64,000 bases of DNA from Candidatus Bathyarchaeia archaeon (GTDB lineage Archaea > Thermoproteota > Bathyarchaeia > Bathyarchaeales > Bathyarchaeaceae): positions 842 to 64,841 of the forward strand of contig DATETJ010000003.1 of NCBI GenBank assembly GCA_035283685.1. Direction: 5' to 3'. A program made the position numbers and the translations under genes. The notes beneath the pieces are model-generated. The model was not told the origin of the DNA, did not search any database, and saw only the letters and a program-made list of their open reading frames with translations. This document shows, piece by piece, positions 10,965 to 63,473 of the stretch. Position 1 is the stretch's first letter; the number at the start of each line of letters is the position of its first letter.

Positions 10965-11056
10965 TGGAGCCCCGGGCGGGATTCGAACCCGCGACCTACA
11001 GCTTTCTTGAGCCTATGTATACAAGGCTATTGCTCTACCGGCTGAGCTACCGAGGC
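10965..11056 (-). tRNA. tRNA-Thr(TGT) with a 16-nt canonical (37/38) intron
   Basis: The reverse complement reads GCCTCGG-TA-GCTCAGCCGGTAGAGC-A-ATAGC-CTTGTA[TACATAGGCTCAAGAA]A-GCTGT-AGGTC-GCGGGTTCGAATCCCGC-CCGGGGC-T-CCA. A CTTG/CAAG 4-bp helix flanked by 3-nt bulges gives a BHB. Confidence 0.85.
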
Positions 11057-11119
11057 ACACTCATCAACAACAAGCAACCTAATATTTTAAAATTTGGTGA
11101 CGAGAAAAAAACAAGTTCT

Positions 11120-11225
11120 TGGTGCCGGGGGCGGGATTCGAGCCCGCGACTTCTGGACTGGGCGTTTGCCCCTTTGTTCTCCAGATTATGAGTCTGGCGC
11201 CCAAACCAAGCTAGGCTACCCCGGC
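11120..11225 (-). tRNA. tRNA-Met(CAT), elongator-type or Ile2-type, with a ~28-nt non-canonical intron 3' of the anticodon stem
   Basis: The reverse complement reads GCCGGGG-TA-GCCT..GGGC-G-CCAGA-CTCATAA-TCTGG-[33 nt where 5 are expected]-GCGGGCTCGAATCCCGC-CCCCGGC-A-CCA. G1-C72 argues against an initiator. Confidence 0.65.
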
Positions 11226-16214: not shown

Positions 16215-16372
16215 TGGTGGGGCCGGCAGGAGTTGAACCTGCGACCTACGGGTTTCTCCTTTTTTTGACCGCTCCAGAACTTCTTCATTCTCACGGTCGT
16301 GAGTCCGCAAACCCGTATTCTTGTGGCTTGCTTTCTGGAGCCCGTCGTCATCCCTGGCTAGACTACGACCCC
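16215..16372 (-). tRNA. tRNA-Trp(CCA) with an 81-nt intron at 37/38 (intron 16254-16334)
   Basis: The reverse complement reads GGGGTCG-TA-GTCT..-G-ACGGG-CTCCAG[81 nt]A-CCCGT-AGGTC-GCAGGTTCAACTCCTGC-CGGCCCC-A-CCA. A CTCC/GGAG helix with AGA and AAA bulges gives a BHB. Confidence 0.85.
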
Positions 16373-42568: not shown

Positions 42569-45307
42569 ATGTCAAACGAGGAATTCTCAGGTTCAATGGG
42601 CGAAAAACGCACCAGAGAAAAATACATTGATCCTGAGATATCGAAGAGAAAATGGATTCCAAAATACGTTGAAGAAGAAGTCAATTCCGTCAAGTCCGAT
42701 TTTGTCGACAAAAAACTTGTGTTCTATGATGGCCACCCTGAGAAAGGTGTTGACAGATTCATAGACTATGTATTGCTCGATGAAGATTATTCGGTTTTAG
42801 CCATCATCGAAGCAAAAGATTTTTCCAAAAATGAGGAAAAGGGACGAATTCAAGCTAGAACATACGCAAAAGACATTGAAAAACAAACCACTAAGAAAGT
42901 GCCTATTTTTCTTACGAATGGCAAAATCTGGCGTTTCATTGATGAAGATGGAATAGAGCGCAAGGTCAGTGGTGTCTTTAGTCAAGAGGATCTCAGGCGA
43001 AGAGGAGATCTCTATGGCAAAAAGAGAAATCCATCTGACGCAAAATTTGAATCACGGATAATTGATCGATCTAAGAACAGATACTTGGTTCAGAAGTTAA
43101 GTGAACACTTCTCAGAAGGACATAGAAAAGCTCTTGTTGAGATGGCCACGGGCACTGGGAAAACAAGAGTTGCGATGGCGATTATTGATCGCCTTATAAA
43201 TTCCAATATGGTTCGAAACGCTTTGTTCATTGCCGATCGAACTGCTCTTGTGAACCAGGCAGAATCAAGCGGATTTCAACAGTTTTTTACCGAGCCAGTT
43301 GTAGATCTTCGTAAGGGTTTTTCTACTACTGGGAGATTGTATGTTTCCACAGTGCAAACACTGATGAGTGGCAAGCCAAGGCTAGCTGAACAGTTTAGTC
43401 CTGGTTTTTTTGACATAATTGTTTTTGATGAAGCTCATAGATCCTATTATGACAAGAATAATTTCATTGACGAATATTTCGATGCCATCAAAATAGGACT
43501 TACTGCCACACCTAGAGAACACGAAACAAAAAACACTTACGACCTATTTGGGTGTGAGCAAGGTAAGCCAACAGTAGAGTATTCCTATGATGAAGCCATT
43601 ATCGACAAGATTCTAGTTCCGTACAAAGCGGAAATAATAGACACTGAGAGATTGTCTCTCGGCATCAAAGGCTCGACATTGACGGAAGCTTTGAAGGATC
43701 AACTCAGACGGCAGGAAGTCAATCCAGAGCAAGCCGAATATGCTGGTTCAGATTTTGATCGGGTGTTCATGGACGACAAGACCAATGAAGTGATAATTAG
43801 AGAATTTATGAATAGTTGTTACAAATCTGATGAAGGCAAGCCTTGTAAATCTATATTCTTTTGTGCGAGTCAGAGACACGCCCAACACATGAAAAGAATC
43901 TTTGGAATCATTGTTCCGAATCTCAGCAATGACGTTCAGGTTATTACGTCTGAAATGTATCGGGCAGACGATGAGGTAAAACGGTTTGGCTTAACATCTG
44001 AGCCAAGGATTGCTTTGTCTGTTGGCATGCTAGATACGGGCATAGATGTTCCAGAAGTGTGCAACCTAGTCTTCGTTAAGCCAGTTTTTTCCCATATCCG
44101 GTTCTGGCAAATGGTAGGAAGAGGAACAAGAAACCGAGAAGCCTGTAAGCATCCTATTTGGTTGCCGAATAGAGAGAAGAATGATTTTCTAATTCTTGAT
44201 TTCAAGATAGGAGGGCATTCTAATGTCTATTATCATCAGTTCGAAGAAACAAAAGAAAAATCCGCTGCTAAAGATGTTATTACTCGGATATTCGAAAACA
44301 GAGTGAAACTCTTACAAAAATCCCTTGATGAAGATCAAAAGAAAATCATCTCAAACAAGATTATAGCATCTATAGACGAGTTGGATAAAGAATCCTTCAT
44401 TCTGCGGGAGAAACTGCCAACACTTGAAAAAATAAAAGGAGAATCATTTAATCTCCAGAATTATGTCAATGAACTAATGAGAGAGATAGCACCTCTAATG
44501 ATCTTTAATCAGGGCAGGAATGCGAATATTTCCTCTTTCATACTTCAGACAGAAAAACTGTTTGGCTATGTTTTAGACAGAAAGAAAGACCTGATAGAAA
44601 ACGTCAGACACTATGTTCAGGAGATGTGCGAGAATATTCTCCGAAAAGATAATCTAACGGAAATAAGGAAAAACAGAGACATTATAATACGTGTACTGCA
44701 AGAGGATTTCTGGGAAGACCTAACATTCAATGACGTTGAGTTCTTAGTGGTACAAATCGCACCATTAATGAAATATTATGAACCAGAGCCAACGAAAATC
44801 GTCCAGGTGGATGCTCCTGACATTGTCTTGCTCAGAGAAAAATACCTAATGGAAATCAAGGAAGATGAAGAGTTGAAGAAATTCCTGAACGTAAATCCTA
44901 TTATCAGGAAGATTCGTGATGGTGAAGGAATAACGCCACCTGAATTGGCGGAATTGGAGTTCGAGCTGTCTTCATTGAGACCTGGTCTCACAGTTGATAA
45001 TGTTCAAAAGTATCAGAATATTGATTTTCTGTCGTTTCTGCATAAAATAATGGGTCTTACAGAGAAATCCGATCCAAAAGAACTAATCGAATATGAGTTT
45101 GACCAATATGTCCTTGCCAAAACAGAATACAATTCTAAGCAATTGGCATTTCTAGCCGTGTTGAAAAAGGTCTTTGCCAATAGAAAACGCATCGGACTCC
45201 CGGATCTGGCAAATCCACCTTTATCCAATGAGCGTCCTCTTGATTTTTTCAAGATAGAGGAATTGAAACTCATTATTGAAAAATGTAATCGAATCAAGAT
45301 GCGATAA
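42569..45307 (+). CDS. hsdR: Type I restriction enzyme R subunit (COG4096/EcoEI-like)
   Basis: N-terminal PD-(D/E)xK (IDYVLLDEDYSVLAIIEAKD). SF2 motifs MATGTGKTRVAM, FDEAHRS and LTATP. C-terminal EcoEI-R-like tail. Confidence 0.85.
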   Translation: MSNEEFSGSMGEKRTREKYIDPEISKRKWIPKYVEEEVNSVKSDFVDKKLVFYDGHPEKGVDRFIDYVLLDEDYSVLAIIEAKDFSKNEEKGRIQARTYAKDIEKQTTKKVPIFLTNGKIWRFIDEDGIERKVSGVFSQEDLRRRGDLYGKKRNPSDAKFESRIIDRSKNRYLVQKLSEHFSEGHRKALVEMATGTGKTRVAMAIIDRLINSNMVRNALFIADRTALVNQAESSGFQQFFTEPVVDLRKGFSTTGRLYVSTVQTLMSGKPRLAEQFSPGFFDIIVFDEAHRSYYDKNNFIDEYFDAIKIGLTATPREHETKNTYDLFGCEQGKPTVEYSYDEAIIDKILVPYKAEIIDTERLSLGIKGSTLTEALKDQLRRQEVNPEQAEYAGSDFDRVFMDDKTNEVIIREFMNSCYKSDEGKPCKSIFFCASQRHAQHMKRIFGIIVPNLSNDVQVITSEMYRADDEVKRFGLTSEPRIALSVGMLDTGIDVPEVCNLVFVKPVFSHIRFWQMVGRGTRNREACKHPIWLPNREKNDFLILDFKIGGHSNVYYHQFEETKEKSAAKDVITRIFENRVKLLQKSLDEDQKKIISNKIIASIDELDKESFILREKLPTLEKIKGESFNLQNYVNELMREIAPLMIFNQGRNANISSFILQTEKLFGYVLDRKKDLIENVRHYVQEMCENILRKDNLTEIRKNRDIIIRVLQEDFWEDLTFNDVEFLVVQIAPLMKYYEPEPTKIVQVDAPDIVLLREKYLMEIKEDEELKKFLNVNPIIRKIRDGEGITPPELAELEFELSSLRPGLTVDNVQKYQNIDFLSFLHKIMGLTEKSDPKELIEYEFDQYVLAKTEYNSKQLAFLAVLKKVFANRKRIGLPDLANPPLSNERPLDFFKIEELKLIIEKCNRIKMR

Positions 45308-45308
45308 T

Positions 45309-45330
45309 TATGTAAACCTTGGTTTACATA
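45309..45330. promoter_or_regulatory. perfect 10-bp inverted repeat (putative operator)
   Basis: TATGTAAACC-tt-GGTTTACATA, sitting 3 nt upstream of TATA ACTTATAAG (45334-45342) and about 36 nt upstream of the RHH gene ATG. Confidence 0.5.
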
Positions 45331-45365
45331 AATACTTATAAGTTGAGCTGCACTTAGGCTTACGC

Positions 45366-45743
45366 ATGGAATATCGAACAGTCTCTGCTAAACTTCCGAG
45401 TAATGAACTTACCTTATTCAGAGCACATTGTGAAAAGAAGGGGGTGTCTCCAGCTTACCTGATCAGGGAGTTAATCCTGAAAGAAATGAGAATCACAGTT
45501 CCACATGCGGTCGCAGGCAGAAACATAATCAATTACGATAGAAACAAAGATTCCTTTACATGGTCCGTTGAACTTGACACTGGAAAAACTGTCGAGGTTC
45601 TGAGAAACGTTTCACCAGTTTTTGTTGAAAATCTGAATGACATTATCACACTCGGCATGGGAGAAAGAACGTCTTTTCTTCGAAAGAAGAGAGAAGATTC
45701 TGTCCCTGTTCCAAGTAATATTCTAAGGAGAAAAAGACAATGA
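45366..45743 (+). CDS. ribbon-helix-helix (CopG/Arc-like) protein embedded in the R-M locus
   Basis: VSAKLPSNELTLFRAHCEKKGVSPAYLIRELILKEM follows the beta-alpha-alpha RHH pattern. Its stop overlaps the hsdS start (ATGA). Confidence 0.6.
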   Translation: MEYRTVSAKLPSNELTLFRAHCEKKGVSPAYLIRELILKEMRITVPHAVAGRNIINYDRNKDSFTWSVELDTGKTVEVLRNVSPVFVENLNDIITLGMGERTSFLRKKREDSVPVPSNILRRKRQ

Positions 45744-46930
45744 AACTGCCAAACGGGGGGCAAGAGGTAAAGATCCAAGAAATTGCAAGGGTTGATTCAG
45801 GTCAAGGAGCCCCACAAGGCGAAGAATGGTACGTTGGAAATGAAGTCTTCGTGAAAGCAGGTGATCTGAATTCTCTAACTGAAGGTAAATACGTGGGAGA
45901 GCACTGCAAAAGGGTGAACGATAACGCAGTTACCCAGTACAAGTTAAGAAAATATCCTAAGAACTCTATAGTATTTCCAAAGAGTGGAATGTCTGTTAAA
46001 ACTGACAATATTGCACTACTGAAATATGACTCATATGTAGTCAATCATCTTGCGATAATACAGGTGAACGGCAATGATGAAGATCTGGTAAAATATCTTT
46101 ACTATTCACTGAAAGAGGCCAAAATATCGAAACTATCCCTAAATGATAGCTACCCGTCAATTAGACTTAGCGACATAAAGAGATACAGGGTTGTTATTCC
46201 ACCTCATCCTCAATTGAGAAAAATGGTTGCAATTCTTGAAAGGGCAGATCAACTGAAACAATGGAGAAAGGAATCTGATAAGTTATCTGAGGATTATCCC
46301 AATAGTGTTTTCTTGGAGATGTTTGGAGATCCAAAGAACAATCCAAAACACTGGGATGTTATCAAGATTAACGATGCCATTGAATATTCCCAGTATGGGA
46401 CCTCAGTCAAATCTAATTCAGATGGAAGAGGTTATCCAGTTGTTGGAATGGGCAACATTACATATGATGGTCGTCTTGATCTTTCAAATCACTCTTATGT
46501 AGAACTACCAAGGGAAGAATTCGAGAAACTAAAACTCCACAAGGATGATGTAATTTTCAATAGGACAAATTCCACTGAACTAGTTGGCAAAACTGCATGT
46601 TGGGATATGGATCTTGACGCAGTCCTGGCGTCTTATCTTGTGAAGCTGAAACTAAGAGAGAACATAAACCCTGTATTCTTTACACACTTGCTGAATACCC
46701 GATTCTTCAAGCAACTATTCTCTATACGCTGTAGAAAGGCCGTAAACCAGTCAAATATCAGTCCAACTCTCTTGAAGAAATTCAGTATGTATTTGCCCCC
46801 TGTTGAGCTTCAGAACAAGTTTGCTTCCACAGCCAACCAAGTTGAACAAATGAGAGCTCATCAAAGAAAATCACAAAAACAGATTGATAACCTATTCAAT
46901 GCTTTGGTGCAAAAAGTGTTTAGAGGTTAG
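45740..46930 (+). CDS. hsdS: Type I R-M specificity subunit
   Basis: Two target-recognition halves are separated by conserved helical spacers (LRKMVAILERADQLKQ...; LQNKFASTANQVEQMRAHQRKSQKQIDNLFNALVQKVF). Confidence 0.85.
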   Translation: MKLPNGGQEVKIQEIARVDSGQGAPQGEEWYVGNEVFVKAGDLNSLTEGKYVGEHCKRVNDNAVTQYKLRKYPKNSIVFPKSGMSVKTDNIALLKYDSYVVNHLAIIQVNGNDEDLVKYLYYSLKEAKISKLSLNDSYPSIRLSDIKRYRVVIPPHPQLRKMVAILERADQLKQWRKESDKLSEDYPNSVFLEMFGDPKNNPKHWDVIKINDAIEYSQYGTSVKSNSDGRGYPVVGMGNITYDGRLDLSNHSYVELPREEFEKLKLHKDDVIFNRTNSTELVGKTACWDMDLDAVLASYLVKLKLRENINPVFFTHLLNTRFFKQLFSIRCRKAVNQSNISPTLLKKFSMYLPPVELQNKFASTANQVEQMRAHQRKSQKQIDNLFNALVQKVFRG

Positions 46931-46935
46931 TTAGC

Positions 46936-48423
46936 ATGCTAGATACAGAACTGAAATCGAAAATAAACCAATTATGGGATAAATTTTGGAGCGGAGGAAT
47001 ATCGGATCCTCTTGTTGCCATTACTCAGATGTCGTATCTGATTTTCATGAGGAGACTGGAAGATGAAGATATCGGCAGGGAACAAAATGCTCAACTAAGC
47101 GGAGAGCATTATGAATCCGTCTTCAAGGTTAATGATGATTGCAGGTGGTCGGAATGGACGAATCTTCCTTCTAACCAAATCTTAGACCATGTTAGAGACA
47201 AAGTGTTTCCATTCCTTAGAACACTTGGTGGAGAAGACTCCCTATATGCTCAATATATGAAACATGCTGTGTTCACTATCCCAACGCCTTCCCTTCTTAT
47301 TGAAGCTGTGAAAATAATCAATGATATGCATATCAAGGAACAAAACAGGGATGCAAAAGGAGATCTATACGAATATCTACTTTCAGAATTGAAAACCGCC
47401 GGAAAAAACGGGCAGTTCAGAACACCGAGACACATAATAAAGATGATGGTTTCCCTAGTAGATCCAGAGATCGGCGATAGTATTTGCGATCCTGCTTGTG
47501 GAACTGCGGGTTTCTTGATTGTTGCTTATGAACATATCCTGAGAAATAACACTTCAAAGGAATTCATCAAAACAGATGAGTTAGGAAACGAATACGGGTC
47601 TAAAGGAGATAAACTGGAAAAAAGACAGTGGAATCTGCTGTTAGAACATACTTTCTATGGATATGATTTTGACACGACAATGCTAAGAATATCACTTATG
47701 AACATGATGATGCATGGAATTGAAAGACCTAACATAAGAGAACAGAACACGCTTTCCAGTAGATATAACCAAGAAAAGAATCGCTATGACGTAGTTTTGG
47801 CGAATCCACCATTCAAGGGAAGTATCAACGAATCGGAGATTAGTAGAGAATTTTCAATCACAACTAAGAAGACAGAGATTCTTTTCCTTGAACTGATGTA
47901 CAACATCCTCTCAGGTGGCGGAAGATGTGCAGTTATTGTGCCAGACGGAGTGTTATTCGGTAATTCTAGAGCACACAAAAAGATTAAGGGAAAATTACTT
48001 GAGGAATGTCGCATGGATGCAGTCATATCAATGCCTTCAGGCGTATTCAAACCCTATGCAGGGGTATCTACGGCGGTTCTAGTCTTTACAAAAGGAGAAC
48101 CCACTAAGAGAGTGTGGTTCTATGATATGAAAGCTGACGGCTACAGTCTTGATGATAAGAGAACTTTCCTAGACGGAAAGGGCGATATTCCCGATATATT
48201 GAGTAAATTCAGCAAAAGAGATCTCGAGCGATTCGAAGATAGAAAAGCCAGCTGCTTCTTTGTTCCCATTGAAGAAATAAAGGAAAATGGTTATGACCTA
48301 AGCGTTTCAAGATACAGAGAACTTGAGTACGAAGAAGTTGTCTACGAAAACCCTGAAGTAATCAAACAGAAAATTCTAGAGCTGGAAAACAAGATTGTTG
48401 AAACCTTACGAACCATTTCTTGA
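46936..48423 (+). CDS. hsdM: Type I R-M N6-adenine DNA methyltransferase subunit
   Basis: FRTPRHI, DPACGTAGFL (motif I) and LANPPFKG (motif IV). Confidence 0.9.
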   Translation: MLDTELKSKINQLWDKFWSGGISDPLVAITQMSYLIFMRRLEDEDIGREQNAQLSGEHYESVFKVNDDCRWSEWTNLPSNQILDHVRDKVFPFLRTLGGEDSLYAQYMKHAVFTIPTPSLLIEAVKIINDMHIKEQNRDAKGDLYEYLLSELKTAGKNGQFRTPRHIIKMMVSLVDPEIGDSICDPACGTAGFLIVAYEHILRNNTSKEFIKTDELGNEYGSKGDKLEKRQWNLLLEHTFYGYDFDTTMLRISLMNMMMHGIERPNIREQNTLSSRYNQEKNRYDVVLANPPFKGSINESEISREFSITTKKTEILFLELMYNILSGGGRCAVIVPDGVLFGNSRAHKKIKGKLLEECRMDAVISMPSGVFKPYAGVSTAVLVFTKGEPTKRVWFYDMKADGYSLDDKRTFLDGKGDIPDILSKFSKRDLERFEDRKASCFFVPIEEIKENGYDLSVSRYRELEYEEVVYENPEVIKQKILELENKIVETLRTIS

Positions 48424-48623
48424 GCAGTCTCGGGCGCATTTCCCATTGACCTTATGATTTAAGGAATAAGCACTTTCTTGTTTGTGGCTTGGTCCTGCTG
48501 TTACGCCTGTTGGCTTCATCGAAGGCTCGATTTGCCCAGTCACCCCAGCTTTCACTATTTCCTGGCAAAGATTCTCGAATTGCTGATTTTGTCAAGTCTT
48601 TCGACCTGGATTATTGAAAGCAA

Positions 48624-49346
48624 TCATATATCTCTGACATGTTTAAAATCTATACAATTTTTATGATAGTAACTATTTATGGTCGACTTTATTGCGGGAG
48701 AACTTGTCAAAATATGAACTGAATCAGAAGTGCAGAATATCGTACTATCATACCCAGTTGCCCATAAAACTGCATCAGCAACAATTTGTCTATCGTCCTC
48801 GTCTTCGATGCAGACAAGCGAGTCAATAAAGCCTTGATCTTTTGATATGGGTATAAGAGGTTTCTGCGTTTTTGTCTCCAAGACAGCACCTATTTTGGAT
48901 TCTACTTCTCTTCTGGTTGCACGATATTCACTTACAATAACTTCTTCATTTCGTGTTATCACGATTTCAAGGAACTGTTTAATGAAAATCCCTTGGTTTT
49001 CATTATACCCTTGAAACATGGCTTCACGGAATTTTCTAAGGTCTTTTATTTTGTTCCTGCTTAGCACAATGTTCAAGTCTCTGCCAAATTCGGACATAAA
49101 GCTCTTGAAATTCTCAATTTCTGAAATAACACTTTCGCTTGTGTGCCTCATGTGAGATGCATTGAAAATGCGAACGCAATCATTATGAAAAAAATCAAAG
49201 TGCACACCATAATTGATATAGACGCATGTGTCAAGAAAGCAAATCCTACTTGCAGGGTTTTTTGTAGGATTTCCAGACATTCGAAATTGTCCCCAAAAAG
49301 TCTTCTTCTTTCCCGTAGACTGTTCTGAAAAATTGCGACCTTTCAT
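48624..49346 (-). CDS. PIN-like nuclease domain protein (putative toxin)
   Basis: Acidic quartet pattern: CFLDTCVYI, SESVISEIE, DEDDRQIVADAVLWA and IFCTSDSVHIL. An alternative start at 49280 gives MSGNPTK. Confidence 0.5.
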   Translation of the reverse strand: MKGRNFSEQSTGKKKTFWGQFRMSGNPTKNPASRICFLDTCVYINYGVHFDFFHNDCVRIFNASHMRHTSESVISEIENFKSFMSEFGRDLNIVLSRNKIKDLRKFREAMFQGYNENQGIFIKQFLEIVITRNEEVIVSEYRATRREVESKIGAVLETKTQKPLIPISKDQGFIDSLVCIEDEDDRQIVADAVLWATGYDSTIFCTSDSVHILTSSPAIKSTINSYYHKNCIDFKHVRDI

Positions 49347-50367
49347 GAGGCGTTAGCAGCAACCCATTTTTTGCGAGCGTCTCATACAAGCTATCCAAGC
49401 AATTGCTAATCCATGAATCCGCATTTGAAAGAATAGCCTCTTGTTTTTTTCTTACTTTATCTGCGCATACGCCTGTTAAGGTTTTCAATGAAATCTTAAG
49501 AGCAATGGGTTTCCAGACTGCTTTTTCATACATGTCCTTCAAGAGCTTCAAGCAATTCAAAAACCATGCTCTCTCAAGATCCACTTTAACCAGATAATCC
49601 TCTAACAAATCGATATATCGATTAGTATAATCATAAAAACATGAAAAATCTGACGAATCAGCAATTTCAAGAACTAACCTAGAAAGGTTTTTTGCGAAGT
49701 GTCTGTAATGGCTAAATTCATTTGTTTCTAGACTGAATTTCAGAAGTGTCTGTTGAATAATGCCTTTTGTTTTGGGTTCAAATTTCTTGACTAACTCGAA
49801 ATTTCTTTCTATTGCGAGGTTGTTGTAGTAGAGCGGCTTATACTTTTCAGGTGCTCTTGTTCGGTAGAATTCCTCAAGAAAGGTGTTGAGCTTTGTATAA
49901 AAGATCTTTCTAACAGTTTCATCCATGATTCTCGAATATTTCGATTGTACGGGAGCGAATAATTTCTCTGCGTTCTTAATTTGGTCGCAAGTTGGTTCTG
50001 ATGAGAAGGTCATCTCATTTATTGGGATTGTAGTATCTGCGTTATGAACATACCCACCATAGAGATACCAGCTTCTTGTTAGGGGTATATCAAGTTCCTC
50101 AGCAACAATGAAAATTATTTTTTGCAGTTTCACTCTATTTTGAGAAAAATCTTGCTGAGAACTTGTATGTAAAATCCTCAAAATATCCCTCAGGATCATT
50201 TTAATTATAGCTGCCTCATCCTGAGGTTCTATTTTCAAAGCTGCCACCAAAATTCTTACTTGACTTATATGGATACTATATAAAAGAGTTTTCTGAAGTG
50301 CAAATACGTCTCTGGGCAAAGAGCAAAACCATATCTGAGACCTTGATGTTGCGATGATAAAGTACAA
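49246..50367 (-). CDS. hypothetical protein with a Panacea/DUF4065-like N-terminal region (putative antitoxin/sensor)
   Basis: RVKLQKIIFIVAEELDIPLTRSWYLYGGYVH resembles the KLQKLLY...GP core of SocA/Panacea domains. The remaining ~250 aa are unassigned and the start is uncertain. Confidence 0.4.
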   Translation of the reverse strand: MYFIIATSRSQIWFCSLPRDVFALQKTLLYSIHISQVRILVAALKIEPQDEAAIIKMILRDILRILHTSSQQDFSQNRVKLQKIIFIVAEELDIPLTRSWYLYGGYVHNADTTIPINEMTFSSEPTCDQIKNAEKLFAPVQSKYSRIMDETVRKIFYTKLNTFLEEFYRTRAPEKYKPLYYNNLAIERNFELVKKFEPKTKGIIQQTLLKFSLETNEFSHYRHFAKNLSRLVLEIADSSDFSCFYDYTNRYIDLLEDYLVKVDLERAWFLNCLKLLKDMYEKAVWKPIALKISLKTLTGVCADKVRKKQEAILSNADSWISNCLDSLYETLAKNGLLLTPHERSQFFRTVYGKEEDFLGTISNVWKSYKKPCK

Positions 50368-50564
50368 AGAAGGAAAATTGATTCTTCATTTTGTCAAGAG
50401 ATGGAAGAAGCGACCTGAGTGCAATACTGAGTAGCTTCCATGTGACTACTGGCTCATTATGTAGGCTAAGTCCACTGAAGCACGCGTAACTGAAACAATA
50501 GTACGCGCTTGACGAACCTGCCCTCGGAAGCCTCGGTCGGCGCGGGCGACGTGCATCGTTGCGT

Positions 50565-50768
50565 TTATCCTCTGTGAGCAGAGCCACGTTGATCCGTGCC
50601 TCTTTCTACGATTTTCACCCCAAAATCCGGTTCTGACGTTGGAGCGTTATTGACGATTGTCTTGGAAATGACTCCGCCACAGTGCGGACAAAAGCCCTTG
50701 GATGCTGGTGGGCAGTTTGGGTACGGAATGCTATTCCCGCACTTGGGACAATTCATTGATCTTGTCAC
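50565..50768 (-). CDS. zinc-ribbon protein
   Basis: CPKCGNSIPYPNC...CPHCGG. Confidence 0.45.
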   Translation of the reverse strand: MTRSMNCPKCGNSIPYPNCPPASKGFCPHCGGVISKTIVNNAPTSEPDFGVKIVERGTDQRGSAHRG

Positions 50769-58540: not shown

Positions 58541-58990
58541 ATGACAAATACTGAAAACTTACATGAATGCTTTCTCAAGGAATGTGAAATTGCTCAAGAC
58601 ATTATTTCAAGAATGGCAAGCAATTCTTTCTTGATAAAGGGATGGGCGATTACGTTGGTTGTAGCATCTCTGCTTATTCAGGGAGTTTCTTATCATCACT
58701 ATGTTGCATTCTTGCCTTGGATTATTTTCTGGATTTATGATGCCTATTTTCTCAGAATGGAAAGACTGTATCGAAAGCTGTATGGTTGGTTGATAAAGAA
58801 CAGAGCTAGTAACAATGATGAATTTTTGTTAGACATGTCTAAAGATAGCTTGGAGAAGAGATTTGGAAAGGAAGTTCCTCATACAGTTCGAGTCATGTTC
58901 TTTAAAACACTTATTGCTTTCTATGGACTGTTGCTAATAATCATTGTTGTTTCGATATATGTTGACCTTAGTGCCATTCAATTTAAGTAA
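58541..58990 (+). CDS. small 3-TM membrane protein (candidate effector partner of the TIR-like gene)
   Basis: TM helices FLIKGWAITLVVASLLIQGV, YVAFLPWIIFWIYDAYFL and TLIAFYGLLLIIIVVSIYV. AAAGGAG lies upstream of the ATG. Confidence 0.6.
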   Translation: MTNTENLHECFLKECEIAQDIISRMASNSFLIKGWAITLVVASLLIQGVSYHHYVAFLPWIIFWIYDAYFLRMERLYRKLYGWLIKNRASNNDEFLLDMSKDSLEKRFGKEVPHTVRVMFFKTLIAFYGLLLIIIVVSIYVDLSAIQFK

Positions 58991-59023: not shown

Positions 59024-59515
59024 ATGGTTAGAAGAGTTTTCTTCAGTTTTCATTATGAGAGAGACATTTGGAGAGTTAGTCAGGTCAGAAATAGCTGGGT
59101 AACCAAACCCGACATAGAAGAAGCTGGTTATATCGATAAAGCTGGTTGGGAAAGCCTAGAGAGAGAAGGAGAAGAAGCAATAAAACGTTGGATTATGAGA
59201 CAGTTAGACGGTACTTCGGTTACTGTGGTTCTGATAGGAGGAGAGACATCCAAAAGACGATGGGTGGGTTATGAAATAGACCAGAGTTCTCGCAAAGGAA
59301 ATGGGATGCTTGGAATATACATTCACAACGTAAAAGACCAGAATAGTCTCACAGACACTAAGGGTAGCAATCCATTCGATAATCGGTATATAGAACAGAA
59401 TGGTCAGAAAACATACTTGTCACAATTGTATCCAACATATGATTGGGTCAATGATAATGGCTATGATAACTTTGGTGATTGGGTAGAGAAAGCTGCTCAA
59501 AAGGCTGGAAGATAG
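59024..59515 (+). CDS. TIR-like domain protein (MTH538/DUF1863, ThsB-type)
   Basis: MVRRVFFSFHYERDIWRVSQVRNSW, TSVTVVLIGGETSKRRWVGYEIDQS and GMLGIYIHNVKD are family-typical strings. Confidence 0.75.
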   Translation: MVRRVFFSFHYERDIWRVSQVRNSWVTKPDIEEAGYIDKAGWESLEREGEEAIKRWIMRQLDGTSVTVVLIGGETSKRRWVGYEIDQSSRKGNGMLGIYIHNVKDQNSLTDTKGSNPFDNRYIEQNGQKTYLSQLYPTYDWVNDNGYDNFGDWVEKAAQKAGR

Positions 59516-59662
59516 AAAAAAGAAAGGATTAGAGTTTATTTCTTCTTTATCAAGACTACTTTACCATCTACGCTGGGTGAACTGATGAGCTACTCAAAGC
59601 AAGAGCTGGAGACTATGCTTCGCAAGGTTGACGCTGAAATCTTGGGACAAGAAGACGCCAAG

Positions 59663-59893
59663 GGCGAGTCTTTTTCCACTTCACGGAGAGTATCCTCGTA
59701 GTAAACGACTCGGCGCGCCTCACAGCCTTAGCCCCCTTGGCGGTACATTGCCAACTTGCTTTTAAACAACCTGGCAGCGCGTTGCCAGTGGCCAGCGCCG
59801 GATCCAGACTGAAATCAATGAGTCAGCAGAGACCTGCACGTCGACGTGGCAAGTGATTCATACCGGATTACTACGAGTATCCCAAGACTCGCC
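59663..59893. repeat. large imperfect inverted repeat enclosing short palindromes
   Basis: GGCGAGTCTT 59663-72 pairs with AAGACTCGCC 59884-93. CTCGTAGTA 59695-703 pairs with TACTACGAG 59869-77. Internal palindromes: CTGGCA..TGCCAG 59771-88 and CACGTCGACGTG 59837-48. Confidence 0.75.
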
Positions 59894-60139
59894 TTGAAAC
59901 GTTTCAACAACCCTAAAGCGAGTCCCTCGAGTTCCGCAAACAGGCCCTGATTGGCGCCCCTCAAACGGGTCCTACGAAGCCTTTTGAGGCTCGAATCAGC
60001 AGCAGCGGGATCCTCATAGTAGTTTGGAGGCGCCCTTCCTCTCTCTCCATAGTCCCTGAAGTCTCTGGGCGCTTAACCGCTTTGTGAATGATTGTTCTGG
60101 AAGAATCTTCTATGGACCCGGAAGACTCGTGCCCAGCGA

Positions 60140-60470
60140 GTCCTCAGAGCTTTTGCAAAGCCATTGAAAGCATTTCTAAAGCTTACAAGAGACCTCTTTG
60201 CGGCTTTAGAGTGCCTTTTTCCCTTTTGTGCGGCGTTCACCCTTTATGCAAAGCTTTTCAAAGCTTGGTCGTTTTTGATAGGCAATGGAAGGCTAGAATG
60301 AGCAACAAGACTCTTTGAAAGCCCTTTAAAGCCTTTAGTAGCTTTTGATAGGCAGGTTTCTAATCAACCTTTCAAAACCCTTTAATGTCCTTCAAGGGCG
60401 CCCTTTCGTAGCCTTTGCGCTGACCTTTCAAAGAGCCTTTGTCCTCCTTTGCAGAAGTCTTTAATTGCTT
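60140..60470. repeat. helically phased CCTTT/CTTT(N)AAAG iteron array
   Basis: At least 18 (G/C)CTTT motifs, many spaced 9-12 bp apart (for example 60311, 60322, 60331, 60341; 60401, 60411, 60423, 60435, 60446, 60457). TTTTGATAGGCA occurs twice (60273, 60343). Confidence 0.8.
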
Positions 60471-60578
60471 ATTCCTAACCTAGACTCAGGGCGTTGTCGG
60501 GAGTCGCCGACGAAAAACTAGGGAGTCTCTTGAGTTTCATGGGAAATCTAGGATCTCTCAGTCCCATCAGATACTTAA

Positions 60579-60627
60579 ACAAATTACCGTAATTTGTGCT
60601 ATTATTTGTTAAACCTAATTAACAAAT
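60579..60627. promoter_or_regulatory. two adjacent perfect 9-bp palindromes sharing an ACAAAT half-site, in an AT-rich tract
   Basis: ACAAATTAC-c-GTAATTTGT at 60579-97, and ATTTGTTAA-acctaa-TTAACAAAT at 60604-27. Confidence 0.7.
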
Positions 60628-61088
60628 ATCTTCATATATTTTTTATGTTGATGGTCTTGTGCTGACATTATGAATCTTAACCCATGTAAGACTATGGCAT
60701 TAAGACCATAATGCTAGTTGAGGGATACCACGCTAAACGCCTTTTGGTATTGACCTTAAGTCATGTTGTTATGGCTAGACTGTGCATGACAACAGCTTAA
60801 CGCTGTGCATAAGCGAGACGTTATGGTTAGCGTAGCGTCTCAGAGACGCTGTTAAGAGGCGGTTGAAGCGAAATAAAGCGTCTAGAATTTACCATAGTAG
60901 CGACTCGTTTCTGTTGTCGTGCATACGCACTATAAAGTCTGTCAGCTATCCTAGTAGCGACACAGACAGTTCTACCGAGAAGGCTTTTTGTGTGAAAGGG
61001 TGAACGGATAGCAGAACCGACACAACAGAACGAACTGTGAAAACTGCCGATTGCAGTAATAGGCTTCTCAAACCAACTGCCCCAAGAA

Positions 61089-61388
61089 GTGGGACAAATG
61101 CACTACGTTTCAAGCTGCAAACTATGCGACTACATGATGGATTCTGAGAACGTGCAGTCGATCAAGACCAAGATTCTAGACCACCTGTCCAAGAGCCACA
61201 ATGAAGACGTTGTGGACTTTGCAACAGAGATAACCCTTAATGAATTGTCTGTTTGGGCAACAACGACAAGACTGACAGGCGGAGACGCTGAGATGTTCAG
61301 GCTGCTCAAGCAAGACAAACACTATTATCACGCTATACGCCACAGAAACCAGACCATCAAGAGTCGCCAATCCCCTGTTTTTGGATAG
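61089..61388 (+). CDS. hypothetical protein
   Basis: 99-aa ORF with a GTG start. Contains a CKLCDY...H..SH possible zinc motif. Confidence 0.4.
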   Translation: MGQMHYVSSCKLCDYMMDSENVQSIKTKILDHLSKSHNEDVVDFATEITLNELSVWATTTRLTGGDAEMFRLLKQDKHYYHAIRHRNQTIKSRQSPVFG

Positions 61389-61471: not shown

Positions 61472-61963
61472 TTGGTTCAGCAAACCAAGGCAGTTAAAGC
61501 CGTTGCTCAAACTGAGACTGTTCAGGTGGTTCCTGAAGAGCTGACCCTTCTGCGTGGATTCCGAGATATTGTCCACGAAAGATGGGCTTACATGCTCGGC
61601 AGGAAACTCAAGCAATCAGAGATGACAGAGAAAACAGAGAAAGAGCGCAAGGTCGTTGCGACAGCACGCAAAGACCTTAAAGACAGCATTACGAAGATCA
61701 TTGAGAACGCCGACATGAAAGGCTACGTTGCGAAACAGGAAAGCATCAAGAAAGCAAACGAAGCCCTAGCCGAAGTGGCTAAGCCACTACGTGAGCCAAT
61801 CAGCGTATTGGCGAAGGGTGTCAAATACATGGACACAGTTGCAATTCCTGACGCTCTCAACGAGCTGGGTAAACCTGTTCAGCCGAAGTTCTCTCTGGGC
61901 AAATGGCTTGACGACGCCTTAGTAGCGCAGAAAAACGAGAAGAAAAAGAAGAGGGCTGCATAA
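61472..61963 (+). CDS. hypothetical Lys-rich helical protein
   Basis: 163-aa ORF with a basic tail KNEKKKKRAA. Confidence 0.45.
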   Translation: MVQQTKAVKAVAQTETVQVVPEELTLLRGFRDIVHERWAYMLGRKLKQSEMTEKTEKERKVVATARKDLKDSITKIIENADMKGYVAKQESIKKANEALAEVAKPLREPISVLAKGVKYMDTVAIPDALNELGKPVQPKFSLGKWLDDALVAQKNEKKKKRAA

Positions 61964-61997
61964 GCTCTCTTCTCACAGGTCTTCTTATCATCACCCA

Positions 61998-62038
61998 TTT
62001 TTTCCTTTTGCCATAGTCAGTCGGTTTGCCCGACTGAC
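61998..62038 (+). terminator. oligo-T run plus 9-bp-stem hairpin
   Basis: T6 at 61998-62003, then GTCAGTCGG-tttgc-CCGACTGAC at 62016-38, about 35-75 nt after the stop at 61963. Confidence 0.4.
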
Positions 62039-62130
62039 GGCCTAGGGGAAAGGCTACTCTGCGGTTAGCTGTTCAATTCGCTGGCAGTTAAAGTACGGGT
62101 TTGAGAAAAAGAAAGTGGGCTTCTCCGTAA

Positions 62131-62255
62131 CTTGAGAGCAACATCTCTAATCCATTTCGAAGTGGGGTTGAGAAACTCCAGCAGTTATCTACCGCATCGA
62201 GTATGGATTTTAGATTCGATGTGTTGCCTCTCAAGTGGAGACAAGCCTTTTTTTT
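62131..62255 (+). ncRNA. ~105-nt extended imperfect hairpin followed by a T8 run (candidate small RNA or DNA cruciform)
   Basis: CTTGAGAGCAACA 62131-43 pairs with TGTTGC(C)TCTCAAG 62222-35. Inner pairs: AATCCAT/ATGGATT, TCGA/TCGA and TGGGG/CTCCA. T8 at 62248-55. Confidence 0.4.
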
Positions 62256-62746
62256 AAACCCTTATGGCGTTTGCCAGCGGGAGCACTGAATCGAAGTGCA
62301 AAGAAAAGGGCGAGAAAGCCCGTTTTAGCCTATACAATGAAACCTACTCACAAGAGGGTTTCGATGACGTAGCAAGTCGCATGTTTCTAGGATAACAAGT
62401 CCAACCGCAAGGTTGGATGGAAACACCCCAGCGACGCAGAGATAAGACGATACCCGCAGAATTTTACAGAAGCCTGGCTACACCACTACTCTTCCTTGCA
62501 GGCTTATGCCTGCTCAATAGAGCAAGATGGCGGGAAACTACGCTGAGGATACATTACAGTGAAGCGTAGGCTAGGAAGCTCAGGCCACTACGAAACCCTC
62601 TAGAACTACACTGTTTCACCTGTGGGATGGTAGGCGGCGAATGCAGCGAGCCCGCTGCAGCCGAACCCCAGCGTTCTCGGGCACGAGAGCTTGAGCCGAC
62701 CTTGCCCACAGGGCAGTAGGAAATCTGGGGTGCGTGAACTTGTGGT

Positions 62747-63418
62747 TTGAAAGATACTCACGTTTTCCCTCTTTCTTCTTTTGGGGGTGTAAAATTGGCT
62801 GAACTACAGTTATTGCTGGATCGCATTAAACCGAAACCGCAGAGAAAAATCAGGTACAAGCGAAGCAACGACGAGCCTGGTCCAGAAATGATGGCTCTTC
62901 TAACAAGGATGAATGACCGCAGGTGGAAAGCTGAAGCACTTGAGTTGCTGCGGGATTTCATACGCGTTACTGCATGGGACGTTTGGATGGCTCGACACAT
63001 CAGAGAATGCGAGCTATGCTACGCAGAAACCACGATTTCAATAGAAAGATACCGTTCAAGAGGGCTGCCTTGGTTTCTTTTCCAAGATGATGAATGGGAA
63101 GACGAAGACGACAGCCCTCTAGAAAGCCCTCTAGAAGTCCACCAACGATTCAAAGAATTCCCACGGATCAGAGATTACTACATTCCTTCGTACTGGGAAG
63201 AAGCAGAAGCTTTCAGAGCAGGACGACCAATATCCCACTCGGGCACAGATGACTTCATCAAAGCAAGGCTGGCATGGGGAGAAAGAATCAGTAGGCAAAA
63301 CTTGGTTCTCGCCTGCAACTTCTACAAACGACTGAATTCATGGAACCTGACCGGTGGTCGACCAAGCTACGATTTCGAAGAATGGTTTTTTCCAGGAGCG
63401 CCAATAATGCCAATCTAG
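62747..63418 (+). CDS. hypothetical protein
   Basis: 223-aa ORF with a TTG start. An internal MMALLTRMND start is possible. Confidence 0.45.
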   Translation: MKDTHVFPLSSFGGVKLAELQLLLDRIKPKPQRKIRYKRSNDEPGPEMMALLTRMNDRRWKAEALELLRDFIRVTAWDVWMARHIRECELCYAETTISIERYRSRGLPWFLFQDDEWEDEDDSPLESPLEVHQRFKEFPRIRDYYIPSYWEEAEAFRAGRPISHSGTDDFIKARLAWGERISRQNLVLACNFYKRLNSWNLTGGRPSYDFEEWFFPGAPIMPI

Positions 63419-63473
63419 TTCCTTTCTTTTTCGGGGTGAATTCCAACTGAATCATCTGGAACGAAGGCAGCTT

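Follow-up and report, generated by a model that had tools for sequence, protein, structure and literature searches.

Few ribozymes are universal, and RNase P RNA is one of them. To our knowledge, every natural RNase P RNA has its ends in helix P1 and comes from a chromosomal or organellar housekeeping gene. In the 1990s, permuted RNase P RNAs and self-cleaving pre-tRNA-RNase P conjugates made in the laboratory showed that joined natural ends, with new ends elsewhere, are tolerated and that a tethered substrate can be cut in cis; among other RNA classes, two-piece tmRNA is made from permuted ssrA genes. We analyzed a 64,000-nucleotide stretch of DNA (the window) from Candidatus Bathyarchaeia archaeon (assembly GCA_035283685.1, contig DATETJ010000003.1, positions 842 to 64,841 of the forward strand), which contains an integrated element with a hairpin-rich, gene-free gap downstream of a protein gene, upA. 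We found that this gap encodes two structured RNA domains on the plus strand, RNA-A (62010 to 62255) and RNA-B (62343 to 62720), that the structure of RNA-B is conserved, and that its core is homologous to the core of RNase P RNA. We consider it likely that RNA-B is a homologue of RNase P RNA in circularly permuted form, carried by a mobile element and with a predicted RNase P-like active site and cleavage activity; as judged from its sequence, it is probably a ribozyme.

In the full-text literature we found no description of a natural permuted RNase P RNA, the permuted forms there being only laboratory probes to which reviews refer; PMC3579882 and PMC11143913 cite related probes made of permuted tRNA. 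A natural, circularly permuted RNase P-like RNA on a mobile element would be an arrangement for which we found no prior description. The engineered permuted RNase P RNAs were artificial constructs, whereas RNA-B represents a natural gene family. Permuted tRNA genes exist in nature (PMC3978253), and, like the permuted ssrA genes, they resemble RNA-B in that the order is rearranged and the functional fold is kept; they differ in belonging to other RNA classes and in that processing there restores or splits the RNA. Among archaeal RNase P RNAs there is a precedent, type T of the Thermoproteaceae, in which the catalytic domain is kept, the specificity domain is radically different, and the standard covariance model misses the RNA (PMC3579882). 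Type T, however, is collinear, chromosomal, and the only RNase P of the cell, whereas RNA-B is permuted and element borne.

Not wishing to rely on resemblance by eye, we built an independent covariance model, R1, from only two sequences, E. coli M1 RNA and the Rfam RF00010 consensus. Each of these was opened ahead of conserved region IV (CR IV) and behind P4, and the natural 3' end was joined to the 5' end, giving the order CR IV, P2', J2/4, P4', P1 (closed), P2, P3, CR I, with P4, P1, and P3 as the modeled pairs. In a 10-kb search with filters off, R1 aligned over its full length to window positions 62437 to 62588 with a score of 22.1 bits (E = 3.6e-4, or ~2e-3 when scaled to the whole window), and the next match scored 4.5 bits. 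On 27 family loci (84 kb), it matched the homologous site in ~20, with up to 36.5 bits (E = 1.7e-6), while all else scored ≤12 bits. R1 matched the plus strand only. The alignments placed CR IV, the ACAGAA motif, the bulged P4, P1, P3, and AGGAAA as predicted, and they matched the hairpin at 62481 to 62529 with the P1 that the permutation had closed in the E. coli sequence.

Three parts are given as universally conserved in RNase P RNA (PMC3579882): the P4 stem and two joiners, P2/P4 and P15/P2. The core of RNA-B matches them, the P15/P2 joiner in part. P4 pairs GCCTG plus GCT (62472 to 62479) with AGC (62577 to 62579) and CAGGC (62581 to 62585), leaving U62580 bulged, and this geometry of 3 bp, a bulged U, and 5 bp directly after ACAGAA is the same as that of E. 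coli M1 RNA. Both flanks of a canonical P4 are found (CR I, AGGAAA..UC; CR V, ACAGAA..GG.UUA): the J2/4 joiner ends in ACAGAA (62466 to 62471) directly 5' of the P4 strand, and R1 aligns a CR I-like segment, GCTAGGAAGC-T-CAGGC (62570 to 62585), which reads GCUAGGA and then AGC-U-CAGGC and holds the canonical P4 5' strand. P2 (3' strand CCCGC, 62453 to 62457; 5' strand GCGGG, 62530 to 62534) crosses P4, so that the P2/P4 pseudoknot is kept, and the P3 hairpin (62538 to 62569) pairs CTACGC (62538 to 62543) with GCGTAG (62564 to 62569). R1 also aligned the P15/P2 joiner, GCAGAGATAAGACGATAC / GCAGAGAUAAGACGAUAC (62436 to 62453), as a block like CR IV (AGAUGAAUG type) to CCUAGAUGAAUG...ACAGAA of bacterial RNase P; the AGAU and the A's match and the block is longer, and in some members it diverges (AGAUUAAUAU, AGAUGGUAAG).

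Neighboring elements of the core adjoin one another as in canonical RNase P RNA, P3 for instance lying between P2 and P4, and it is in their overall order that RNA-B departs from the canonical RNA. Instead of a collinear P1-P2-P3-P4...P4'-P1' arrangement with the ends paired in P1, RNA-B is bounded by a helix of 6 to 7 bp that we call helix X (CCTACT, 62343 to 62348; AGTAGG, 62715 to 62720). This helix covaries, CCUACUC/GAGUAGG in the window becoming CCUGCUU/AAGCAGG in relative L042. The P1 equivalent is a closed extended hairpin (62481 to 62529) with the tip GCAGGC-ttat-GCCTGC (62498 to 62513). It is reduced to CUUCUC-UUUU-GAGAGG in compact relatives and ranges from 16 to ~150 nt across the family, and in all members it is closed by a loop, indicating that the natural RNase P termini have been joined.

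Several points weigh against identifying RNA-B as an RNase P RNA homologue. The Rfam RNase P models matched neither the window nor relative L107, whether at gathering score or at E ≤ 10; we attribute this miss to the permutation, and family membership then rests on our own model. R1 itself gave no match in a whole-window search with default filters, and its E-values, obtained with a shortened calibration, are rough, although signal and background are far apart. ACAGAA varies (GUGGAA, ACUGAA, GUAGAA), with only GAA fixed in the family, and the linker between P5 and P15 has 13 nt where 3 is usual. The 3' domain shows no demonstrable sequence or structure similarity to the canonical specificity domain (P7 to P12, CR II, CR III), Rfam local matches included. 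RNA-B apparently runs straight into a Shine-Dalgarno (SD) sequence, as a cis-regulatory leader would, and no tRNA genes were found on the element with Rfam and ARAGORN searches of the window. The Rfam misses would also suit a large structured noncoding RNA of unrelated origin with a coincidental likeness to RNase P, as would the want of demonstrable counterparts for RNA-A, the 3' domain, and the GAUAACAA/ACACCCC module of the P15/16 region. We regard such coincidence as very unlikely, since a model derived from bacterial sequences alone aligns end to end with the window and ~20 relatives over a background of ≤12 bits, and since the P4 geometry, flanking motifs, P2/P4 pseudoknot, and P3 position are those of the canonical core.

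Evidence for the fold of RNA-B came from covariation. In an unguided MAFFT alignment of 22 RNA-B variants, on which we wrote down 13 helices (one of them a pseudoknot), 90.8% of cells pair, compared with 37 to 49% when the 3' partners are slid by 1 to 3 columns. Both sides change in 51 of the 80 pairs (10 to 22 of 80 in the slid controls), the covariation score is 0.381 (0.06 to 0.09 slid), and none of 500 shuffles reached any of the observed values. P4 pairs in 100% of cells with double changes in five of its eight pairs, P2 in 96.4% with four of five pairs covarying, and P3 in 99.2%. G-U cells exceed A-C cells by 96 to 46, which indicates an RNA of the plus strand.

The gap also folds better than expected by chance. 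On the plus strand its minimum free energy over the full length is -301.7 kcal/mol, compared with -244.7 ± 8.4 in dinucleotide shuffles (z = -6.8). RNA-B alone (62337 to 62722) gave z = -5.9, with 0 of 100 shuffles as good, and RNA-A alone (62008 to 62256) gave z = -4.6, with 0 of 200; in a sliding scan of the surrounding coding windows, z lay mostly between -1.5 and +2 and reached ~-2.8 within upA. A preliminary description, made from the letters of the window, had reported that the gap lacks any open reading frame (ORF) of 60 aa or more and has a balanced base composition by eye, and both statements held: the longest ORF in 61964 to 62746 has 51 aa, and the GC content of the gap is 0.49. Its central inference, one or more element-encoded structured noncoding RNAs, is borne out for the plus strand by the homologues and their covariation.

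The same description had suggested functions for such an RNA (replication primer, antisense regulator, antitoxin RNA, or guide RNA) and, alternatively, DNA-level cruciforms. The gap is indeed dense in hairpins and lies on a replicating element with a primase-helicase, and its minus strand folds well too (z = -5.7 against dinucleotide shuffles), as a primer, a cruciform, or an origin might. Long-range helices and a pseudoknot that covary are not needed by cruciforms, however, and the excess of G-U over A-C cells, the homology to RNase P, and the lack of any complementary target, toxin gene, nuclease gene, or repeat array nearby make this whole group of explanations extremely improbable. None of the suggested functions found support, the RNA carrying instead a permuted RNase P-type catalytic core. 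All of the hairpins and T-runs that had been listed are present, each within 1 nt of the position given. They are mostly not separate items, though, since the P16-like hairpin, the P1 tip, and two hairpins of the 3' domain are helices of one large RNA.

We compared RNA-B with described RNase P RNAs. Archaeal type A (RF00373; for example, the RNase P RNA of Methanothermobacter thermautotrophicus) has in common with RNA-B a bulged-U P4 flanked by AGGAAA and ACAGAA, P2 (~6 bp there, 5 bp in RNA-B), P3, the P2/P4 pseudoknot, an AGAU-type joiner that leads straight from the P15 or P15-like helix into P2 without P18, and a P5 helix leading to a second domain. RNA-B differs in that it is permuted, with a capped P1 and with its ends in an extra helix that separates the second domain from P5; in that the P5/P15 linker has 13 nt instead of ~3; in that no P8, P9, or P12 is recognizable; and in that it is carried by an element beside a conserved protein gene, upA, and a second structured RNA. 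RF00373 misses it even at E ≤ 10. Bacterial type A, represented by E. coli M1 RNA (RF00010), aligns statistically with the core of RNA-B once M1 is permuted, and the P4 geometry is identical, whereas RNA-B lacks P18, P13, and P14 and has the permuted order. The GGU of bacterial L15, which pairs with the 3' RCCA of tRNA (PMC11143913), is replaced by UGGAAACACCCC in RNA-B.

Around the core, the first helix inside helix X is a P5-like helix of 9 bp (GAGGGTTTC, 62354 to 62362; GAAACCCTC, 62592 to 62600), in which 97.5% of cells pair and three pairs are double changed. The 13-nt linker that follows it (GATGACGTAGCAA, 62363 to 62375) ends in GCAA, comparable to the GCAA of bacterial J5/15. Next comes a P15-like helix (GTCGC, 62376 to 62380; GCGAC, 62431 to 62435) that encloses an internal loop and a P16-like hairpin with a GCAA loop (62399 to 62418, including TCCAACC-GCAA-GGTTGGA at 62400 to 62417). 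Within this P15/P16-like region also lie GGATAACAAG (in 62363 to 62435) and TGGAAACACCCC (62418 to 62429). In the two helices, 94 to 96% of cells pair and 12 of 13 pairs show double changes; we assign the names P15 and P16 from position and from the GCAA before the helix. In nine relatives that we term type 2 members (L024, L042, L049, L053, L073, L079, L129, L131, and L008), P15 is cut down to a short GNRA hairpin, and a conserved GNAACACCCC..GAUAACAA module stands in the P1 extension and not in the P15/16 internal loop. This shift implies that the module can be transplanted within the RNA.

The 3' domain (62619 to 62712) occupies the position of a specificity domain and comprises helices 9 to 13 of the alignment. 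Its outer helix pairs CCTGTGGG (62619 to 62626) with CCCACAGG (62705 to 62712), and a second helix pairs AGGCGGC (62632 to 62638) with GCCG-A-CCT (62695 to 62702). Inside are two hairpins, TGCAGCG-agcc-CGCTGCA (62642 to 62659) and TCTCG-ggca-CGAGA (62675 to 62688), and the invariant block GAACCCCAG (62663 to 62671). A separate observation concerns the apex of P3: at 62541 to 62566 the window reads GCUGAGGAUACAUUACAGUGAAGC, and most relatives have CUGA and GAUGA separated by 11 nt, which by eye looks like an archaeal K-loop (C'/D'-like) and would then be a candidate L7Ae binding site.

Other assignments within the region were considered and rejected. A hairpin at the 3' end that resembles domain V of a group II intron by eye is one strand of a covarying long-range helix, and no Rfam intron model matched in the region, which speaks against an ORF-less group II intron. 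A GCAG/CUGC pairing around CR IV is displaced by the covarying P2; no bulge-helix-bulge motif was seen at helix X; and GAUAACAA/GGAAACACCCC, taken as CR II/CR III of a specificity domain, belong by position to the P15/16 internal loop and lie in the P1 extension in type 2 members. A pairing of GGCUAC in RNA-A with GUAGC of the P5/P15 linker found no support in L086, L104, and L109. No Rfam 15 model matched the region at gathering score or at E ≤ 10, large phage and element noncoding RNA families such as ROOL, GOLLD, OLE, and HEARO included.

The proteins encoded on the two sides of the gap, UpA and a 207-aa downstream protein, have few relatives, all metagenomic. In each upA relative whose contig continues, upA is followed by a gene-free gap of 700 to 1,000 nt that is homologous to the gap of the window. 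We scanned metagenome contigs with a pattern of three invariant blocks of the 3' domain (TAGGCGGC..GAACCCCAG..GCCGA) and obtained 119 stretches, about one-third of which also carry other conserved blocks. In all, there are more than 30 distinct full-length RNA-B variants from metagenomes. Relatives are 59 to 76% identical to the RNA-B of the window, and one is found on a contig of 1.94 Mb, which carries a gene for a Bathyarchaeia-like PheT as well. In each of the 22 loci that reach far enough upstream, upA stood 260 to 610 nt 5' of the RNA, with UpA homologues of 34 to 76% identity, and the linkage thus held even at 34%; the downstream gene differs among family members. upA, RNA-A, and RNA-B form a conserved module on integrative elements of Bathyarchaeia. 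A blastn search against phage genomes gave no match, and viral contigs scanned with the RNA pattern or with the flanking proteins gave none either. A scan of a genome collection with the pattern RGAACCCCAGM produced one match, in a Pseudomonadota metagenome-assembled genome, but says little because this pattern excludes the variant of the window itself, which has C before GAACCCC.

Some copies are incomplete. L007 (182 to 403) has the same flanks as L008 and ~135 nt less (the P1 extension, a P2 strand, P3, CR I, and a P5 strand), and L052 and L059 retain only the portion that starts with CR IV, which there follows the end of a gene for a protein; all three are deleted or recombined copies. They are what would be expected if RNA-B were a functionless, decaying pseudogene or a captured fragment of a host rnpB gene. 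We give that idea next to no credence, because in more than 30 divergent full-length variants the core motifs persist and compensatory changes maintain all of the helices, the synteny with upA never varies, and a rearranged order with a neatly capped P1 is unlike decay.

RNA-A, the second structured domain, lies between upA and RNA-B. It is preceded by T6 (61998 to 62003), possibly an archaeal terminator after upA, and a T-run occurs here in nearly all relatives. RNA-A includes a 9-bp hairpin (62016 to 62038; GTCAGTCGG/CCGACTGAC), the conserved block GGGGAAAGGCTAC (62045 to 62057), a closing helix (GGGCTTCTCC, 62117 to 62126; GGAGACAAGCC, 62237 to 62247), and a 105-nt extended hairpin that runs from CTTGAGAG (62131 to 62138) to CTCTCAAG (62228 to 62235) and has the apex GGGGTTGAGAAACTCC. 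The T8 that follows (62248 to 62255) had been read as an archaeal terminator, which is plausible; the hairpin and T8 belong to the separate conserved domain RNA-A. RNA-A is conserved in 13 aligned relatives, with compensatory changes in 10 of 30 predicted pairs. The order in the family is a T-run, a hairpin, the block AUGGAAAGGCUAC, a second hairpin, CAGACAAAAGGCU, and then the domain closed by GGGCUUCUCC with GGAGA..AGCCC, which contains the long hairpin with apex GGGGUUGUGAAACUCC and in most members ends in T7 or T8.

In L086, L109, and L012/L132, RNA-A passes directly into RNA-B without a T-run (L086, 624 to 1187, corresponds to window 62010 to 62720), whereas in the window and most other members the two are separated by a T-run (T7 or T8) and a small hairpin resembling a second copy of the closing helix of RNA-A. 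There is thus a one-piece form of the module and probably also a two-piece form. The sequence TTTTAAA (62252 to 62258) resembles a TATA box and would set a transcription start near 62278 to 62282, inside the conserved GCCAGCGGGAGCAC; relatives have the equivalent TTTTTTTATTTTT and then a conserved GGTCAGCGGTAGCAC at the TATA-like position. T8 may both end RNA-A and, as TTTTAAA, serve RNA-B as a TATA box. The leader of RNA-B (62266 to 62342) has three small hairpins (62266 to 62275, 62283 to 62299, and GGGC-gagaaa-GCCC at 62308 to 62321, with GTTTT next) that have equivalents in relatives, for example, GGGCUGGGAAAGAAGCCC.

If RNA-B is a permuted RNase P RNA homologue, it would fold into an RNase P-like active site and act as a Mg2+-dependent endonuclease, probably as a ribonucleoprotein (RNP) with host RNase P proteins, UpA, or both. 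Two modes of action seem about equally likely. In trans, tRNA-like substrates would be cleaved by RNA-B as an RNase P variant encoded by the element. In cis, RNA-B would cut the transcript that contains it, at the 5' edge of helix X, and this helix would mimic an acceptor stem. In that case a GGGGUG trailer (GGGGTG, 62727 to 62732), located 6 nt beyond helix X, would base pair with the CACCCC of the P15/16 loop, much as GGU in bacterial RNase P pairs with the 3' CCA of tRNA. CACCCC is invariant on the 3' side of the P15/16 loop, where the bacterial GGU and the tRNA 3' RCCA meet (PMC11143913), and is complementary to the trailer; in the window CTGGGGTG is complementary to CACCCCAG (62424 to 62431), and the pairing itself is hypothetical.

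As a tentative proposal, in which we have low confidence as a whole, upA, RNA-A, and RNA-B could constitute a self-contained mobile RNase P-derived RNP that acts on its own transcript. Helix X would be a tethered acceptor stem and GGGGUG would dock on CACCCC; a cut at the 5' edge of helix X would separate the RNA-A/upA message from the downstream message and control translation of the latter. UpA would be a new RNase P cofactor, and RNA-A would be an accessory domain, detached or fused, in keeping with the existence of one-piece and two-piece forms.

GGGGUG is also the SD sequence of the next gene, which starts here in most relatives, and for this reason a regulatory, noncatalytic role is the main rival. 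RNA-B would then be an RNase P-derived leader that provides a binding platform for tRNA, for an RNase P protein, or for its own 3' trailer and that governs translation of the downstream gene by hiding or exposing its SD. The layout of the family suits such a leader: in most members only 1 to 6 nt separate helix X from GGGGUG, with the start of the gene a few nucleotides further on, no terminator separates the RNA from the gene, and the complement between the CACCCC segment and the SD extends to 8 nt in the window (CUGGGGUG/CACCCCAG) and to 9 nt in L011. However, this SD is the general one of neighboring genes, for example, at 63432, so that the complementarity to CACCCC could be incidental, and it cannot covary. 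Furthermore, the downstream gene is not constant among members, a 60-nt spacer and a second SD intervene in the window, the CACCCC module lies elsewhere (in the P1 extension) in type 2 members, and the strict conservation of P4, its bulged U, and J2/4 exceeds the needs of a binding scaffold. We therefore hold a noncatalytic leader to be unlikely.

If RNA-B is indeed a permuted RNase P RNA, several consequences follow. The RNase P fold would be shown to tolerate natural rewiring, and a permuted RNase P RNA would be diversifying on the mobile elements of an archaeal class that is abundant and uncultured, selfish elements having taken up the ribozyme for some task other than, or additional to, bulk tRNA maturation. 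Standard covariance models would be blind to such variants, and others may be hidden. The more than 30 covarying sequences and the linked protein UpA offer a ready set for biochemistry and structure work.

The upA gene (61472 to 61963, plus strand, from the ORF list) encodes an all-helical protein of 163 aa with a basic C-terminal tail and without Pfam, PHROG, or PDB matches; its AlphaFold2 model has low confidence (pLDDT 53) and is unsuitable for a fold search. The downstream gene (62795 to 63418, plus strand) most likely starts at TTG 62795 behind the SD sequence GGGGGTG (62783 to 62789), which makes the gap between it and upA ~830 nt long. Its 207-aa product has no Pfam, PHROG, or PDB relatives. 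At another locus (L001, 10245 to 11480), the gene 3' of the RNA encodes a 411-aa element protein whose match with the tRNA-binding, N-terminal domain of arginyl-tRNA synthetase falls short of the threshold (E = 7e-4; 20.6 bits, cutoff 21.5), and an ASCH-domain protein is encoded nearby. These are weak hints of RNA-related cargo.

The window is part of an archaeal chromosome, with a 5S rRNA gene, three intron-containing tRNA genes, archaeal PheRS, TrpRS, and TyrRS, and a CCA-adding enzyme. Its PheT is 100% identical to that of an NCBI metagenome-assembled genome assigned to Candidatus Bathyarchaeia archaeon. The tRNA genes lie at 10968 to 11225 and 16218 to 16372, the length of one intron-bearing gene being given as 155 nt, and ARAGORN with bacterial settings recovers one of the three. 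The integrated element starts at ~40.2 kb, and the hairpin-rich gap is inside it. Element genes include those for a tyrosine recombinase, a type I restriction-modification system, a 921-aa primase-polymerase/helicase, and a ThsB-TIR-like protein. A low-GC island (42569 to 50600; GC content of 0.37 to 0.41, compared with 0.47 to 0.49 around it) holds HsdR (42569 to 45307), HsdS (45740 to 46930), HsdM (46936 to 48423), and two reverse-strand genes and appears to be cargo within the element. The ThsB-like TIR-domain gene (59024 to 59515; annotated by JGI as Pfam PF08937 on identical contigs) lies after a gene for a small membrane protein (58541 to 58990) and is possibly a Thoeris-like defense gene, with no obvious ThsA alongside. 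Between it and the ORF at 61089 to 61388, the gene-poor gap 59516 to 61088 contains a further strongly structured stretch (60560 to 61000; z = -5.9, with 0 of 100 shuffles as good). This stretch has AT-rich inverted repeats at its 5' end, shares only pieces of 46 to 51 nt with L009 and L010, and could be the replication origin of the element or another RNA.

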